Assembly: GCA_034422355.1 (NCBI GenBank)
Contig: DAOUJS010000146.1
Span: 898 to 64,897 of the forward strand
DNA from: Dehalococcoidia bacterium
GTDB taxonomy: Bacteria > Chloroflexota > Dehalococcoidia > Lucifugimonadales > UBA3495
Length of the DNA stretch: 64,000 nt
Direction: 5' to 3'
The position numbers and the translations under genes are program-made. The notes beneath the pieces were generated by a model that was given only the letters and a program-made list of their open reading frames with translations, had not been told where the DNA came from and did not search any database. Position 1 is the first letter of the stretch; the number at the start of each line of letters is the position of its first letter. Positions 3,757 through 44,503 of this stretch are shown in pieces.

Positions 3757-4608
3757 TCAGGCTCCCTTTGCGCCGCCGATGTCCCTGCGCTGGAACAGCC
3801 AGACGGCCACGGCCATAAGCACCGTGGTATAGACCAGCATGACCAACAGGCCGTGGAGGTTCCCAGTCATCGCGCCAGCATCGCCAAAGACGAGCATCCC
3901 TCCCTGGTCCCCACTGTTCGCATCATTGGCGATCCAGGCTTCTACAGCCCTGCCGAGAACGAAGCCAGCAAGACTATCGAACGTATCCGTCGTGGCCAGG
4001 ACTATCGGCACGATGGCTCCTTCAACGACAAACTTGTATACAAGGGTGATGGCCGTTGCCGTGTTTGCGGACGTGGTCAGGACGGCGAAGAACATGGCCA
4101 CGGCGATGTACGGGACGAACGCCAAGGCGGACTTGCCCAAGTGCACAAGTACGGTGGACCACTCGCCCGCTGTGGCGATTCCCCCTTCACCCTCGATGAC
4201 GCCCACCACCAACCCGCTGGCGCCCATCCCGACGCACATCACCAGCAGCCAGGCCACTCCCGTAGCCGCCATCAGCACGAAGATGGCTGCAAGGAATTGC
4301 CAGCGGGCAGCGCCCTTCGCAAGCACGGCCCGAAAGGTCCCCCAACTGTATTCCGACCCCAGTGCTGAAGAGGTCCAGATTACAATCGCCACCACAAGCA
4401 CTGTGTTCCCAAACGTGAGGCCGAGGCCAACACCGTTAGGGAGCAGCAGGGAGTCCAGAAATGCCTCTCCCAAGGCGTTCAGCGCGTACATGGCCCAGTA
4501 GAGGACTTGCGTCGCTGCGATCAGCACTGCCAGCAGCACCCACGGCATCCACCGCCGACGCAGCTTGAACCATTCCCATCTTACGAGGGCCGCGGAGTTA
4601 GAGGTCAC
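3757..4608 (-). CDS. ABC-2 type transporter permease
   Basis: 283 aa, polytopic and hydrophobic. Overlaps the stop of the upstream ATPase gene by 4 nt. Confidence 0.8.
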   Translation of the reverse strand: MTSNSAALVRWEWFKLRRRWMPWVLLAVLIAATQVLYWAMYALNALGEAFLDSLLLPNGVGLGLTFGNTVLVVAIVIWTSSALGSEYSWGTFRAVLAKGAARWQFLAAIFVLMAATGVAWLLVMCVGMGASGLVVGVIEGEGGIATAGEWSTVLVHLGKSALAFVPYIAVAMFFAVLTTSANTATAITLVYKFVVEGAIVPIVLATTDTFDSLAGFVLGRAVEAWIANDANSGDQGGMLVFGDAGAMTGNLHGLLVMLVYTTVLMAVAVWLFQRRDIGGAKGA

Positions 4609-5519
4609 GGCTGTCGCTCTCCATCGTCGGCGGTAACTTCCAGGAAATAACCTTCAAGGGACTGCCGGAGCGGCCACATCTCAGTTACGTAAACCTGGGA
4701 ACGGCTCAGGGCAGCGGTCAGTTCCCAGGCACGGGCTACCGGGCAGGTGACCACGAGGGAAGGACCGTCTACTGCCACGTCTTCAACCCAACTCAACTCT
4801 GCCAGAATCCGGCGGGCCTCCCCATCACTGGTGGTAATCAGCTTCACCCGTTCGCCGGAGCGAATGAGATCAGCCACAGTACCCTGAGCAATCAGCCGTC
4901 CCCTGGACAGGATAGCAACGCTGTCACACACCTGTTCAACCTCGTAGAGCAGGTGGCTGGACAGGAGCACCGTCCGGTTGCCGTCGCCAAGGCTGCGGAT
5001 AAGCTCTCGCACTTCCGCCATGCCGGCCGGGTCCATGCCATTGGTCGGTTCATCGAGGAAGAGAAGCTCCGGGCCGCCCAGGAGGGAGCAGGCAATTCCC
5101 AGCCGCTGCTTCATCCCCAGGGAATAGGTATGGTAACGGTCCCCGGCGCGGTCAGAAAGGCCCACCAGCTCCAACAGCACATCAACTTCCCCCGGCTTAC
5201 CCCGACCCAGGATTCCCTGGAAGTATTCGAGGTTGTGCCTGCCGGACAGGTAGGGATAGAAGGACGGGGTTTCAATGATTGCGCCGATGCGCCGCAGGGC
5301 TTCTGTCTGAGGCGTGTCCGTTCCCAAGAGCCAGTACGTGCCGGAGGTTGGGCGGACAAGGCCGAGCAACATGCCCATGACCGTGGTCTTGCCCGAGCCG
5401 TTAGGGCCCAGCAGGCCGAATACAGAGCCACGGGGCACTTCCAGGGAAAGTTGATCGACAGCCAGGACTCTACCAAACCTCTTGGTCAACCCCTGGGTGT
5501 GGATGACGAGGTCGTTCAA
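4605..5519 (-). CDS. ABC transporter ATP-binding protein
   Basis: Walker A GPNGSGKTT, signature-like YSLGMKQRL, Walker B LLFLDEPTNGMD. Confidence 0.95.
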   Translation of the reverse strand: MNDLVIHTQGLTKRFGRVLAVDQLSLEVPRGSVFGLLGPNGSGKTTVMGMLLGLVRPTSGTYWLLGTDTPQTEALRRIGAIIETPSFYPYLSGRHNLEYFQGILGRGKPGEVDVLLELVGLSDRAGDRYHTYSLGMKQRLGIACSLLGGPELLFLDEPTNGMDPAGMAEVRELIRSLGDGNRTVLLSSHLLYEVEQVCDSVAILSRGRLIAQGTVADLIRSGERVKLITTSDGEARRILAELSWVEDVAVDGPSLVVTCPVARAWELTAALSRSQVYVTEMWPLRQSLEGYFLEVTADDGERQP

Positions 5520-5706: not shown

Positions 5707-5715
5707 TGCTATAAT
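5707..5715 (+). promoter_or_regulatory. extended -10 promoter element (TGcTATAAT) for selD
   Basis: TGCTATAAT lies about 27 nt upstream of the ATG at 5742. The -35 is weak. GAGG SD at 5735-5738. Confidence 0.45.
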
Positions 5716-5741
5716 GGGCCTCATCCCCTCAATGCGAGGCT

Positions 5742-6788
5742 ATGATGCAAAGCAGCGAAATACGACTGACAGAACTGTCTCACTGCGCGGGTTGAGCCGC
5801 CAAGCTCAGCATGGAGGACCTGGTCCAGGTCCTGAGTCAGCTACCCACGATCACCCATCCCAACCTGCTTGTGGGAACCGAGACCGGCGACGATGCGGCC
5901 GTGTACCGCATCAACCAGGATACGGCGCTGATACTCACCGTGGATTTCTTCACCCCGATCACGGACGACCCCTACGAGTTTGGGACAATCGCGGCAGCCA
6001 ATTCCCTGAGCGACGTTTACGCTATGGGCGGGCGGCCGATTTTGGCCCTCAACGTAGTGGGGTTTCCGGCGGACTTGGCCCGGGACATGTTGGGGCCGGT
6101 GCTGCGAGGCGGCTACGACAAGGCGGCGGAGGCGGGCTGCCTGATTGCCGGGGGCCATACTGTGGACGACTCGGAGCCGAAGTACGGTCTTTCGGTGGTG
6201 GGGTTGGTGGAGCCGGGGAACCAGGTTACCAACGCCGGGGCCCGTCCCGGGGATGTGCTGGTGCTGACCAAGCCCATCGGCACGGGGATAATCACCACCG
6301 GATGCAAGCAGGGAAAGACTCCCTATCCGGTCCTCCAGGGGGCGGTGAACACCATGGCCACCCTGAACAAGGCTGCGTCTGAAGTGATGATGATGGTGGG
6401 CGTCAACGCCTGCACCGACATCACCGGGTTTGGTCTTATGGGGCATTTGCGTTCGATGGTCCGGGGCAGCAACGTGAGCGCCCGGATTCGGTTCGACCAG
6501 GTCCCAGTCCTTCCGGGTACCTGGGACCTGTTGGAGGAGGGAGTTGTGCCGGGAGGGACTCACCGGAACCTGCAAGCCGTGTCCGACACCGTGCATTGGG
6601 AGCCTGGGACCACGGAGGAGATGCAACTCCTTATGTGCGATGCCCAGACATCCGGAGGGTTGCTAATGGCCGTCCCGCCGGAGGACCGGGACAAGCTTAT
6701 GTCCGGCCTGGATGACGCTGGAGTGTCAGCGGCGATCATAGGGGACATAGTGGATGGCTCGCATCACCAGATCCAGGTGCTGAACTAG
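5742..6788 (+). CDS. selD: selenide, water dikinase SelD, selenocysteine-containing (UGA at 5793-5795 read as Sec)
   Basis: The ORF track starts at 5811, but the same frame reads MMQSSEIRLTELSHCAG-TGA-AAKLSMEDLV from the ATG at 5742. This is the SelD N-terminal SHxAG(C/U)xxK motif. The remainder (GTETGDDAAVY, VDFFTPI, LSDVYAMGG) is canonical SelD. Confidence 0.88.
5805..5836 (+). promoter_or_regulatory. candidate bacterial SECIS hairpin
   Basis: CTCA (5805-5808) pairs with TGAG (5833-5836), and GGACCT (5816-5821) with AGGTCC (5827-5832). Apical loop is GGTCC. The hairpin starts about 10 nt after the UGA. Confidence 0.5.
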
Positions 6789-6909: not shown

Positions 6910-6975
6910 GATTAGCGGACACAGCGTTGCCTCCGCCCGGCCTCGCCACACTATCGGAGCCGCTGTCAGACTGGA

Positions 6976-7033
6976 GACGGGTCCTATCCGCCGCTCCCCG
7001 GCCGGCACGCTGGCATGGGTGCGGCGTTCTCAG
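6976..7033 (+). repeat. dispersed ~57-nt repeat, copy A
   Basis: GACGGGTCCTATCCGCCGCTCCCCGGCCGGCACGCTGGCATGGGTGCGGCGTTCTCAG. Near-identical 5' module to copies B, C and I. Confidence 0.85.
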
Positions 7034-7043
7034 GAGGTGCCGC

Positions 7044-7661
7044 ATGTTGAGAAAACGGCCTGAACAAGTCAAGACCGCCCCTGACCAGGGTAAGGGAGAG
7101 CGCGTCCCGCCGGGTCAGTTCCTCACCACCAAGTTTCCGGTGCTAACCTACGGCTCCACACCCAAGGTGGACCTGGACACTTTTTCGTTAAAGCTGTTCG
7201 GGCTGGTGGAACGGGAGGTCGAGCTTAGCTGGAAGGAGTTCACGGGTCTTGAGTGGACCACGGTCACGGCAGACTTCCACTGCGTAACCCAATGGAGCCA
7301 GTTGGACAATACCTGGGAGGGAGTTACCCTGGCCACGGTCGCAGGGCTGGCGCGGCCAAAGCCCCAAGCCAAGTTCATCATGGCCCACTGCTACGGCGGT
7401 TACACAACCAACCTGCCGCTGGACCTGGCGATGGAAGAGGGGCTTCTCGCCCACAAGCAGGAAGGGAAGGAACTGGGAGAGGGTCACGGTTGGCCGTTAA
7501 GGCTCGTCGTTCCCAGCCGGTACGGGTGGAAAAGCGCCAAGTGGGTCAACGGCATTGAGTTTATGGCGGAAGACGCCCCCGGATTCTGGGAGCAGCGCGG
7601 TTACAACAATGACGCCGACCCGTGGAAGGAAGAGCGTTTCTGGCCTGAATTGACCCGTTAA
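7044..7661 (+). CDS. sulfite-oxidase-like molybdopterin-dependent oxidoreductase (soluble catalytic domain)
   Basis: FHCVTQWS, GWPLRLVVPSRYGWKSAKWVNGIEF. ATG at 7044 is preferred (AGGAGG SD 6 nt upstream). The ORF-track start at 6927 runs through the repeat. Confidence 0.85.
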   Translation: MLRKRPEQVKTAPDQGKGERVPPGQFLTTKFPVLTYGSTPKVDLDTFSLKLFGLVEREVELSWKEFTGLEWTTVTADFHCVTQWSQLDNTWEGVTLATVAGLARPKPQAKFIMAHCYGGYTTNLPLDLAMEEGLLAHKQEGKELGEGHGWPLRLVVPSRYGWKSAKWVNGIEFMAEDAPGFWEQRGYNNDADPWKEERFWPELTR

Positions 7662-27574: not shown

Positions 27575-27713
27575 CCGTCCTGTTGAGGGTTACGTTGATG
27601 GCCCTGGAAGAACCCGGGGCAACGCTTGTTTTGGTCGCGCAAAGTAGCATACCACGGAAAACGCCCCCAAGTGTGCTTCCTGCGCAGGACCTTCAAATTG
27701 TCGGAGAAATGTT

Positions 27714-27734
27714 CCCTCTCCCAGAGGGAGAGGG
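27714..27734. repeat. CCCTCTCCC-aga-GGGAGAGGG perfect hairpin
   Basis: 9-bp stem followed by an extra AGAGGG unit. Lies in a divergent intergenic region. Confidence 0.6.
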
Positions 27735-27795
27735 AGAGGGTGTCCTTTCACAGGAAGCCGCTGCTGATGTTAAGGATTCTCCTCACCTCCGGCCC

Positions 27796-27811
27796 TCTCC
27801 CTCAAGGGAGA
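27796..27811. repeat. TCTCC-ctcaa-GGAGA hairpin (same repeat type)
   Basis: CCCTCTCCCTCAAGGGAGAA. Confidence 0.4.
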
Positions 27812-27846
27812 ACTAAAAGACCCTGGTGGCTTCCTGCAGACTGCCG

Positions 27847-27875
27847 TTGAACGGGAGACGGTTCCAGCTTACAAT
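27847..27875 (+). promoter_or_regulatory. promoter TTGAAC-17-TACAAT
   Basis: TTGAAC at 27847-27852 and TACAAT at 27870-27875. This argues for the GTG at 27913 as the glutaredoxin start. Confidence 0.45.
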
Positions 27876-27912
27876 GGGCATTGTCCAAGCAATACGACAA
27901 GGGGAGTCTGAA

Positions 27913-28143
27913 GTGACCCAAGCCGCAGATACCGATGTAACCATTTACACCCACCCCGATTGCGCTTATTCCGCCGCCGCCAAGATGGACTACCGCAAGC
28001 GAGGCGTAGCATACCTGGAAATCGACGTCGCCAAGCAGCCTGACAAGGTGTCCGAGCTTCTGGAGCACTCCAAGGGAGAACGGGTAACGCCGGTCATTGT
28101 CGAGAATGGCGTTGCCACCATCGGGTTCAAGGGCGGGTATTGA
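27913..28143 (+). CDS. glutaredoxin-like protein with CxxS active site
   Basis: VTIYTHPDCAYS...VTPVIVENG..IGF. AAGGGGAG SD 6 nt before the GTG at 27913. Confidence 0.75.
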   Translation: MTQAADTDVTIYTHPDCAYSAAAKMDYRKRGVAYLEIDVAKQPDKVSELLEHSKGERVTPVIVENGVATIGFKGGY

Positions 28144-28373
28144 GACTTCTAATCCGGGCCGGTCGGCCCACAGATTCCTGAGAGCGCCTTTGCCGCCCAT
28201 CCTCTCCCAAGCGGACAAATTTCCGTCTTTACTGACATTTGCTCGTTGTGGGGGCCGAAAACGCTATGCTAGGATTTCCCTAGACCACGACAGCAGGCAC
28301 CCACCAAATTCACCATGACATGGCCAGCCGCCGGGGAAGCGGGGCAGCCTGTCAATGCGAAGGAGCAGTCAGG

Positions 28374-29456
28374 ATGGCAGGGACGGAACGGGACAAAGAG
28401 GCCGCGTTGGAGATCGCCCTTGGGCGCATCGAGAAAGACTATGGCAAGGGCGCAGTTATGCGCCTCGGGGAGATGAGCCAGCAACTGGCTACAGAGGTAA
28501 TCCCCACCGGGTCATTGGCGCTGGACGTTGCGCTGGGAGCAGGCGGGATCCCCAAGGGCCGGGTGACTGAAATCTTCGGCGCGGAATCCGCGGGGAAGTC
28601 AACCCTGGCGATCCACATCATGGCCCAGACTCAGCTACAGGGCGGAACAGCCGCTTATGTGGATGTGGAACACGCCCTCGACCCCTACTACGCCGCGAAT
28701 TGCGGCCTGAACCTGGACAGCCTGCTGATCGCCCAGCCGGACAGCGCGGAGCAGGCCCTGGACATCACCGAGCAACTGGTCCGCAGCGGCGCTATCGACT
28801 CGGTAGTTATCGACAGCGTGGCCGCCCTGGTCCCCCAGTCAGAGATCGAGGGCGACATGGGGGATACCCATGTGGGCGCACAGGCCCGGCTGATGTCGCA
28901 GGCGTTGCGGAAACTCACCTCAGCCATACACCGCTCGCACACCGCCGTGATCTTCATCAATCAACTAAGGGAGAAAATCGGCATCTCCTACGGCAATCCC
29001 GAGGTCACACCCGGCGGCAGGGCCCTGAAGTTCTACAGCTCTGTGCGCATCGACCTGCGCCGCATTGAGTCGATCAAGCAGGGATCGGAGATCATCGGAA
29101 ACCGCGTGCGGGCCAGGATCGTCAAAAACAAGATCGCCGCGCCCTTCCGTGTTGCCGAGTTCGACATTATGTTCAATCAGGGCATAAGCAAGATGGGGGA
29201 TCTCCTTGAACTAGGCACCAGTCAGGGCATCATCAAGAAGTCCGGGTCCTTCTACTCCTATGGCGAGACCCGCCTGGGCCAGGGCAGGGAGAATTCCAAG
29301 GAGTTCCTCACACAGCACCCCGAAATCGCCGCCTCTGTGGAAGCTCGAATCCGTGGCATGGAACCATCACAGGAACCGGCACGGCCGGCTGCCACAGCGG
29401 AGGACGGGGCCGATTACAGGCTTCCCGCCGTTTCTGACGCGGACGGCGAAGAATAA
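28374..29456 (+). CDS. recA: recombinase RecA
   Basis: [42 protein letters not shown] before the ATG at 28374. Confidence 0.98.
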
Positions 29457-43480: not shown

Positions 43481-44503
43481 TCATTGGCTCAAGCCCGCCA
43501 ACTCGGTATCGGCATCGAACAGATAACGTGTCCAGTGGTCGCCGCGCAGGAGGTCCAAAGCCTCGGACCATGCCCGGCGGGCCTGGTCGAAGTTTGGGAG
43601 CTCCCGGTTCCGGGCAGCCACCGCATCCAGATAGGCGTTCAGGTCGTCGCGGAAACCGTCAAGGCCGGAATAGCTGCGCTCCTTCAGCCGGTCAATCATG
43701 CGGTCTGCCGCACCCTGGACCGCGGAATCAGTGTTGTTATAGCTCAACGACATCTCTTCCAGTTCCTGCATATAGTTGACCACCGGGCGCTGGCCGTAGG
43801 GTTCCCGGTAGCCATCAGCTTGATCGGGCGGTCCCTGGGGCGTCGTGTAAAACTTCAGTATCTCCAGGTAGGAGTCGAACGCGGTGCGGGGAGGGCCTCC
43901 CCTGATGTTGGCCTCTCCCTCCACAGGGACCAGGTCGGCGCAATCAATGATGGTCAGTTGGCCGGCGCCGGGCTGGTAGAACAGGTTCTGGGGACGCATG
44001 TCCAAGAGCACGTAACCGGCTTCCAGGAAGGATTCCTGGACCTCCAGCAATTGGCGGTGGACAGGGAAGGGATCGCCCTGGTCTACCGGGACCAGCGGGT
44101 GGAGGGTAAAGAGGTTCTGCCCGATGCCTGTGGGAACGCGCTGAATTCTTGCCCGCATGTCCCCCACCATCAACGGGATGCCCCTGGCGCGTTCCTCAAC
44201 GATTACCCGGTACTCATTGCCCTGGGAATCTCCGTAGAACTCATCGTGGTTGGCCCGCTCCGAATACCCAATCAGGGAAGCAATGCCGGGAGTGTTGGCC
44301 GGGAGGCGCTCCAAGGCTTCCAGCATCCGGTCGGTGCGGGCCTCGGTGCTGCCGTGCATCCCGCGGCTGATCATCTGGGGTACGGGCCGTTTCAGCACCA
44401 CCGGCGCGCCGCTCTCCTGGTCGATGGCGGAGCGCACTTCATAGTCAGCGCCCGACCCTAGCAGGCCGGTTATCTGAAATCGGTTGAGGTCCACTAACTG
44501 CAT
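43481..44503 (-). CDS. atypical protein-kinase-fold protein
   Basis: G-loop GSGADYEV, VVLKRP (VAIK-like Lys), LLDMRPQNLF (D-x-K/R-P-x-N), IIDCAD in place of DFG. I do not recognise the C-terminal ~140 aa. Confidence 0.65.
   Translation of the reverse strand: MQLVDLNRFQITGLLGSGADYEVRSAIDQESGAPVVLKRPVPQMISRGMHGSTEARTDRMLEALERLPANTPGIASLIGYSERANHDEFYGDSQGNEYRVIVEERARGIPLMVGDMRARIQRVPTGIGQNLFTLHPLVPVDQGDPFPVHRQLLEVQESFLEAGYVLLDMRPQNLFYQPGAGQLTIIDCADLVPVEGEANIRGGPPRTAFDSYLEILKFYTTPQGPPDQADGYREPYGQRPVVNYMQELEEMSLSYNNTDSAVQGAADRMIDRLKERSYSGLDGFRDDLNAYLDAVAARNRELPNFDQARRAWSEALDLLRGDHWTRYLFDADTELAGLSQ

Follow-up and report, generated by a model that had tools for sequence, protein, structure and literature searches.

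The 64-kb window analysed here, a stretch of a metagenome-assembled genome (MAG) of a Dehalococcoidia bacterium, carries a selD gene whose reading frame contains a single internal TGA. The question that this locus raises is whether the TGA ends translation or is read as selenocysteine (Sec). Among bacterial selenoprotein families, SelD ranks second in breadth of distribution; its Sec lies in the N-terminal loop, and it can keep the Sec trait in place where FdhA is seldom found (PMC1794560, PMC13188914). The genome to which the window belongs (hereafter referred to as G000) comprises 4.75 Mb in 204 contigs with 61.5% G+C, and is 98% complete with 7% estimated contamination. It was analysed together with 40 relatives from the same genus, family or order, giving 41 genomes searched. 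We assign a probability of about 95% to the reading that 5742/5745–6788 on the forward strand encodes a complete SelD with Sec as the catalytic residue of the N-terminal loop, specified by the UGA at 5793–5795 and decoded via SelB and a hairpin at 5815–5833. The features on which the following sections draw are collected in Table 1.

Table 1. Coordinates and matches of the selD locus and of the selenium-related genes of G000. Plain numbers are positions in the window; numbers preceded by C refer to contigs of G000.
Feature	Location	Strand	Details
selD CDS (selenide, water dikinase)	5742..6788	+	348 codons including one UGA, predicted Sec; stop TAG 6786–6788
Possible extended -10, TGcTATAAT	5707–5715	+	read directly from the sequence
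Possible Shine-Dalgarno, GAGG	5736–5739	+	read directly from the sequence
Gly codon GGU directly 5' of the UGA	5790..5792	+	entropy 0.36, lowest 3% of 144 four-fold columns
In-frame UGA, predicted to be read as Sec	5793..5795	+	residue 18 counted from ATG 5742
CUCA, 5' half of the proposed lower stem	5805..5808	+	partner UGAG 5833–5836; can be drawn, unsupported as a conserved element
Internal ATG (Met24)	5811..5813	+	false start of the standard ORF 5811..6788
SECIS apical hairpin	5815..5833	+	5' arm AGGACCUG 5815–5822, loop GUC 5823–5825, 3' arm CAGGUCCU 5826–5833
ABC transporter ATPase and ABC-2 permease	3757–5519	-	upstream of selD
Oxidored_molyb domain protein	6927–7661	+	downstream of selD
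selA	C152:42124–43464		555.3 bits, cut-off 267.9
selB	C46:141013–142869		641-aa open frame; 320 bits (350.2 with the C-terminal piece), cut-off 242.25
tRNA-Sec (selC)	C152:83494–83590		RF01852, 68.2 bits (match at 83498–83590), gathering score 47; ARAGORN tRNA-SeC, anticodon tca
GrdC-beta equivalog	C46:184352–185851	+	NF040746, 631 bits, cut-off 450
GrdE/GrdG-like protein	C171:28749–30137	-	174.5 bits, below its cut-off
GrdA			U43; NF040748, 191 bits against 130
GrdB-family selenoprotein B			U347; TIGR01918, 473 bits
UGSC family, three genes			U96, U102, U108; NF041046 / PF24696
Thioredoxin-like/NHL protein			C-U-I-N-C; Thioredoxin-like and NHL families
CMD/AhpD-like protein			CxxU; PF02627
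BtuF-like periplasmic binding protein			CxxU; PF01497
DUF3179, two genes			UPLC; PF11376
Rhodanese			U-QGGIRS; PF00581
Peroxiredoxin			U46; PF00578
Loci of the preceding 12 genes, part 1	C46:+187600; C93:+21441; C73:+2943; C120:+8339; C91:+30932; C131:+35823		
Loci of the preceding 12 genes, part 2	C162 24959; C133 31184; C22 2537; C199 1260		reverse-complement positions
Loci of the preceding 12 genes, part 3	C171, upstream ORF piece at plus coordinates 27658–28698; C46, plus coordinates 66170–66172	-	C171: TGA immediately 3' of the ORF piece

The selD reading frame and its internal UGA

Direct translation of the window showed that the selD frame is open from the ATG codons at 5742 and 5745 to the TAG at 6786–6788 and that the TGA at 5793–5795 is its sole interruption, which agrees with the original prediction of a frame open back to ATG 5742. 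Translated through the TGA, the frame gives MMQSSEIRLTELSHCAG-U-AAKLSMEDLV.... At this locus, the mechanical ORF list has only the segment 5811..6788 (325 aa) and thus truncates selD, as had been pointed out. The true start is probably the second ATG, at 5745, since most relatives align from residue 2 and since the possible Shine-Dalgarno sequence is 5 nt from this codon and only 2 nt from the ATG at 5742. A promoter/terminator consensus scan gave no call upstream of selD, including at 5707–5739, where the possible -10 and Shine-Dalgarno elements of Table 1 lie. The neighbours of selD, namely the ABC transporter genes and the gene for the Oxidored_molyb protein, beyond which hspR/dnaK follow, were examined and have no evident link to selenium.

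Two NCBIfam SelD equivalog profiles matched the read-through product: TIGR00476 with 394.9 bits against a cut-off of 125 (residues 8–315 to profile positions 1–310), and NF002098 with 378.9 bits against a cut-off of 299 (residues 2–344 to profile positions 1–344 of 347). Because both profiles align from their position 1, the 17 residues preceding the UGA belong to SelD. The best solved-structure match was E. coli SelD (3u0o; 277.4 bits, E = 1.7e-81, residues 3–339 to 2–337). In this alignment of the read-through product with a Cys-type enzyme, U18 falls on Cys17 and K21 on Lys20 (SHCAG-U-AAK and SHGAG-C-GCK, respectively), so that the UGA occupies the Cys/Sec site of the SHxAG(C/U)xxK motif, where it had been predicted to lie. 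The Gly-rich N-terminal loop to which Cys17 and Lys20 of E. coli belong is essential for catalysis in SelD. The Asp-containing motifs DDAAVY, DFF.PI.D.P, SD..AMGG and TD.TGFGL, which we take to be the ATP/Mg ligand motifs of the PurM-like fold, are identical or conservatively replaced relative to 3u0o. The Aquifex aeolicus SelD chain 2yye, from an enzyme that is natively a selenoprotein and was reportedly crystallised with Cys, has GCAAK at the Sec-loop position and aligns over residues 7–337 (E = 9.3e-70). As judged from these matches, the read-through product is a full-length SelD and a predicted selenophosphate synthetase.

Of the 41 genomes, 38 gave a SelD match over the full length that is interrupted by a single in-frame TGA; protein identity falls as low as 44%, and these genes contain no other stop or frameshift. 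At all of the 30 loci examined, the TGA lies in one and the same column (...AG*A[AGS]K..., with the asterisk for TGA) and the peptide before it, RLTELSHCAG, is conserved despite variation at its synonymous sites. Met24, encoded by the ATG at 5811, is not conserved; relatives have L, I, Q, P, H or R in its place. Thus, relatives whose selD begins at the internal Met, with no conserved upstream frame, were not encountered; 30/30 loci keep both the TGA and the peptide before it.

These observations bear on the possibility that the TGA at 5793 is a true stop, with selD starting at the ATG at 5811 and the upstream 17 codons forming an untranslated leader. The standard ORF does begin at this ATG, which follows the TGA by 15 nt, but a protein started at Met24 would lack the loop that, in the alignment to E. 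coli SelD, contains the catalytic Sec and Lys (Cys17 and Lys20 of the E. coli enzyme). Moreover, both equivalog profiles extend across the TGA to their first position, the upstream codons are conserved as protein in 30/30 loci while their synonymous sites vary, and the proposed initiator Met is itself replaced in relatives. We consider a true stop very improbable.

Alternatively, selD could be a pseudogene, or the TGA could be an assembly or sequencing error for a Cys codon, TGC or TGT, from which it differs by one base, in a genome that is a MAG. Such an accident is hard to reconcile with the presence of the TGA in 38/41 independently assembled genomes, to 44% identity and without other stops or frameshifts, and with an adjacent RNA hairpin that is under selection (see below). 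In our estimate, this explanation has a negligible probability, and the reading of the UGA as Sec within a complete SelD is preferred over both.

Some genomes deviate in gene number. G010 and G022 have selA and selB and no SelD match; these MAGs may be incomplete or may have lost selD. In G018, an additional N-terminal piece of selD, 50 codons long and containing a TGA (C1:176072–176221), lies just upstream of the full gene, and G027 has two copies of TGA-selD.

The hairpin downstream of the UGA

A bipartite hairpin with a GGACCU/AGGUCC stem and a lower CUCA/UGAG stem had been proposed downstream of the UGA. The apical part proved to be real: GGACCU/AGGUCC is contained within an 8-bp stem, which starts 19 nt from the UGA and whose loop starts 27 nt from it. 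We aligned 54 nt from the UGA on, without gaps, for 28 distinct sequences, such that columns 23–30/34–41 correspond to 5815–5822/5826–5833 of the window. In this alignment, 97.8% of the cells of the 8-bp stem were paired, and three pairs had compensatory double changes. No shuffle attained the observed paired fraction, and controls in which the stem was slid along the alignment reached at most about 50%. RNAalifold, applied to the relatives' alignment, returned exactly the helix 5815–5833 and nothing else. The first base of the loop, G at 5823, is invariant, although the encoded residue is V, G or A.

The lower stem fared differently. Taken alone, CUCA/UGAG was paired in 84.8% of the cells, two of its four pairs were broken in 7 and 9 cells, and 213 of 500 shuffles were as good; it is also absent from the RNAalifold prediction, and we rejected it as a conserved element. 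Folding the single sequence gave an energy that was not significant (z = -1.17, 23/200 shuffles as good), and its minimum free energy (MFE) structure contained a small hairpin that pairs the UGA itself, which was rejected because it has no compensatory change. Since the single-sequence energy is no better than that of shuffles, the case for the apical helix was built on the comparison with relatives. In an Rfam search of the window, only a tRNA-Gln was found, with no family match to the SECIS hairpin.

A Cys-type selD, which would have served as a hairpin-free control, was sought among the relatives and not found, and a synonymous-site test was therefore used instead. It was run on the selD genes of 29 relatives, in which 144 conserved codon columns are four-fold degenerate. 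The third-base entropy over these columns had a mean of 1.39 bits and was 0.6 or lower in only 8 columns. The stem codons at 5820, 5829 and 5832, with entropies of 0.36, 0.49 and 0.49, respectively, account for three of these 8 lowest columns, and the loop Val codon at 5823 is free (1.69). The stem overlaps the conserved peptide EDLVQVL, and part of the nucleotide conservation thus comes from the protein, from which the synonymous-site test separates the RNA contribution only statistically. These comparative results, taken together, show RNA-level selection on the hairpin at 5815–5833.

The Gly codon directly 5' of the UGA, with an entropy of 0.36, is a fourth member of the 8 lowest columns. 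The third base of this GGU is nearly frozen, being U in 27/29 relatives despite the 61.5% G+C of the genome and the free variation at other four-fold sites. This is possibly a context requirement for recoding.

Decoding machinery and other selenoprotein genes

A Sec codon in selD implies a full Sec-decoding system elsewhere in the genome, as had been noted, and selA, selB and one tRNA-Sec with the anticodon UCA were indeed found in G000 (Table 1). The tRNA is the only tRNA-SeC (tca) among the 48 tRNAs called by ARAGORN. Within G000, selD, selA/selC and selB sit on three different contigs, and we checked relatives because a MAG can mix organisms. G003, which belongs to the same genus, has a single-contig chromosome and a SelD that is 99% identical, and carries TGA-selD, selA, selB and tRNA-Sec on that one contig, which mitigates the concern about contamination and split contigs. 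Absence of selA, selB and selC, which would have spoken against recoding, was thus observed neither in G000 nor in G003. Among the 41 genomes searched, selA was present in 39 and selB in 39, and in 36 the tRNA-Sec family model gave a hit that exceeds its gathering score.

Two more RF01852 matches in G000 (C70:8521–8608 and C194:16751–16836) scored just over the gathering score, with 52.6 and 50.2 bits, respectively; they are not tRNA-SeC by ARAGORN and are probably long-arm class II tRNAs. ARAGORN also reported a 'tRNA-???' with a 2-base anticodon at C140:68856–68930.

With these components, SelB-GTP loaded with Sec-tRNA-Sec would bind the apical hairpin at 5815–5833, within the coding sequence. 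From this stem, which starts 19 nt beyond the UGA, it would hand the tRNA to a ribosome that has paused on that codon, where release factor 2 competes with it. Both the binding of SelB to this hairpin and the actual incorporation of Sec at the selD UGA are what we infer from the gene set and the conserved RNA element.

An in-frame TGA throughout a lineage would also be expected after a genome-wide reassignment in which TGA specifies a standard amino acid, as it does in codes 4 and 25. However, TGA is the commonest stop of long ORFs in G000, ending 1259 of the 3097 ORFs of at least 300 codons (41%), and the only tRNA with a UCA anticodon is tRNA-Sec by both ARAGORN and Rfam. In addition, in-frame TGAs occur only where known selenoprotein families have a catalytic Cys-equivalent residue, as described below. 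Reassignment is extremely unlikely on these grounds, and we retain the reading of UGA as a Sec codon at specific sites.

The original prediction had further anticipated that other selenoprotein genes of this genome would be split by an in-frame TGA, naming fdhA, grdB and prx-like genes. We scanned G000 for ORFs joined by one in-frame TGA. A first filter, which used coding score and hairpin, was swamped by terminators after true TGA stops, and a two-sided coding filter and a Sec/Cys paralogue test were therefore needed: coding potential was scored on both sides of the TGA, and either a SECIS-like hairpin or pairing with a Cys paralogue was required. The best candidates were tested against NCBIfam and Pfam. 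In at least 12 further genes, a single in-frame TGA occupies the place equivalent to a catalytic Cys (Table 1), and this list is probably incomplete. The 12 read-through ORFs match curated families, in line with the expectation, and the alignment to the listed family spans the U in 11 of them; for the rhodanese, Pfam gave two matched stretches, of which only the first is listed (residues 15–123). The families of all 12 genes are listed as known prokaryotic selenoprotein families (PMC13188914). The named genes were thus recovered in part: the list includes a GrdB-family gene and a peroxiredoxin, but a Sec-type FdhA was not found, as all five PF00384 (molybdopterin oxidoreductase) matches in G000 are without an in-frame stop.

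Within the 64-kb window, no further convincing TGA-interrupted candidate was found. Elsewhere in G000, a candidate on C177 (88 aa) had no Pfam family match, and one at C194:+57437 (410+279 aa) looks like two adjacent genes in the same frame. A transposase-like ORF with an in-frame TGA, GTIVDATIIEAP*SAKN (C63, reverse-complement position 43669), was rejected as probably a pseudogene and not a selenoprotein.

Two of the 12 genes have partners nearby. The GrdC-beta equivalog lies about 1.7 kb upstream of GrdA, and the GrdE/GrdG-like protein, whose score is below its cut-off, adjoins the GrdB-family gene. This arrangement suggests a predicted Grd-type reductase in this Dehalococcoidia genome. Since no Sec-type FdhA is among the five PF00384 matches, SelD, and not FdhA, is the core selenoprotein in G000. 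A broader proposal, that the Sec trait is anchored order-wide by Sec-SelD rather than Sec-FdhA, and supports a selenoproteome of 13 or more genes with a Grd-type (glycine/sarcosine/betaine-like) reductase among its products (GrdA, GrdC-beta, the GrdB-family protein and the GrdE/G-like protein), is tentative and, in our judgement, rather doubtful. If it were true, these Chloroflexota would be selenium-dependent reducers of glycine-type osmolytes, an activity that is usually linked with Clostridia and a few Deltaproteobacteria.

Consequences for annotation and comparison with known systems

Standard gene calls leave selD 23 codons short, with its catalytic loop gone. At least 12 other genes of G000 are likewise split or truncated, and metabolic reconstructions of these uncultured Dehalococcoidia that rely on such calls will consequently overlook or misread their selenium-dependent enzymes. 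The lineage appears to be one more in which Sec-SelD, not FdhA, maintains the Sec trait, a situation already discussed for marine metagenomes (PMC13188914). The selD case itself is a well-known recoding event that implies no new mechanism, and its value lies mainly in the annotation of this genome and its relatives.

The reference bacterial SECIS is that of E. coli fdhF, which has a GGUC loop with a bulged U, and the rule used by bSECISearch sets the spacing between UGA and loop at 16–37 nt. Like the fdhF element, the selD hairpin is a stem-loop within the ORF that closely follows the UGA, and its apical loop starts with G-U; the spacing of 27 nt between UGA and loop is within the above range. 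It differs in that no bulged U is evident, that the spacer between UGA and stem is longer (19 nt), and that, in place of the GGUC with its bulge, there is a loop of 3 nt, which grows to 5 nt if the G-C pair that closes it opens.

As an enzyme, the product shares the catalytic loop and the Asp-containing motifs with E. coli SelD, which has Cys where the Dehalococcoidia SelD is predicted to have Sec; because its residue 17 is Cys and not Sec, E. coli selD requires no SECIS element, and ORF finders predict it correctly. The closest counterparts are the Sec-SelD systems of Haemophilus influenzae and A. aeolicus, which are alike in enzyme family, Sec site (G-U-x-x-K), an intragenic SECIS after the UGA, and selA/selB/selC. 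The lineage-specific details are limited to the hairpin sequence, the spacer of 19 nt and the frozen GGU that precedes the UGA. Compared with these two systems, the one described here belongs to a Dehalococcoidia (Chloroflexota) lineage and has a hairpin of its own, AGGACCUG-GUC-CAGGUCCU, and is otherwise no different in kind.
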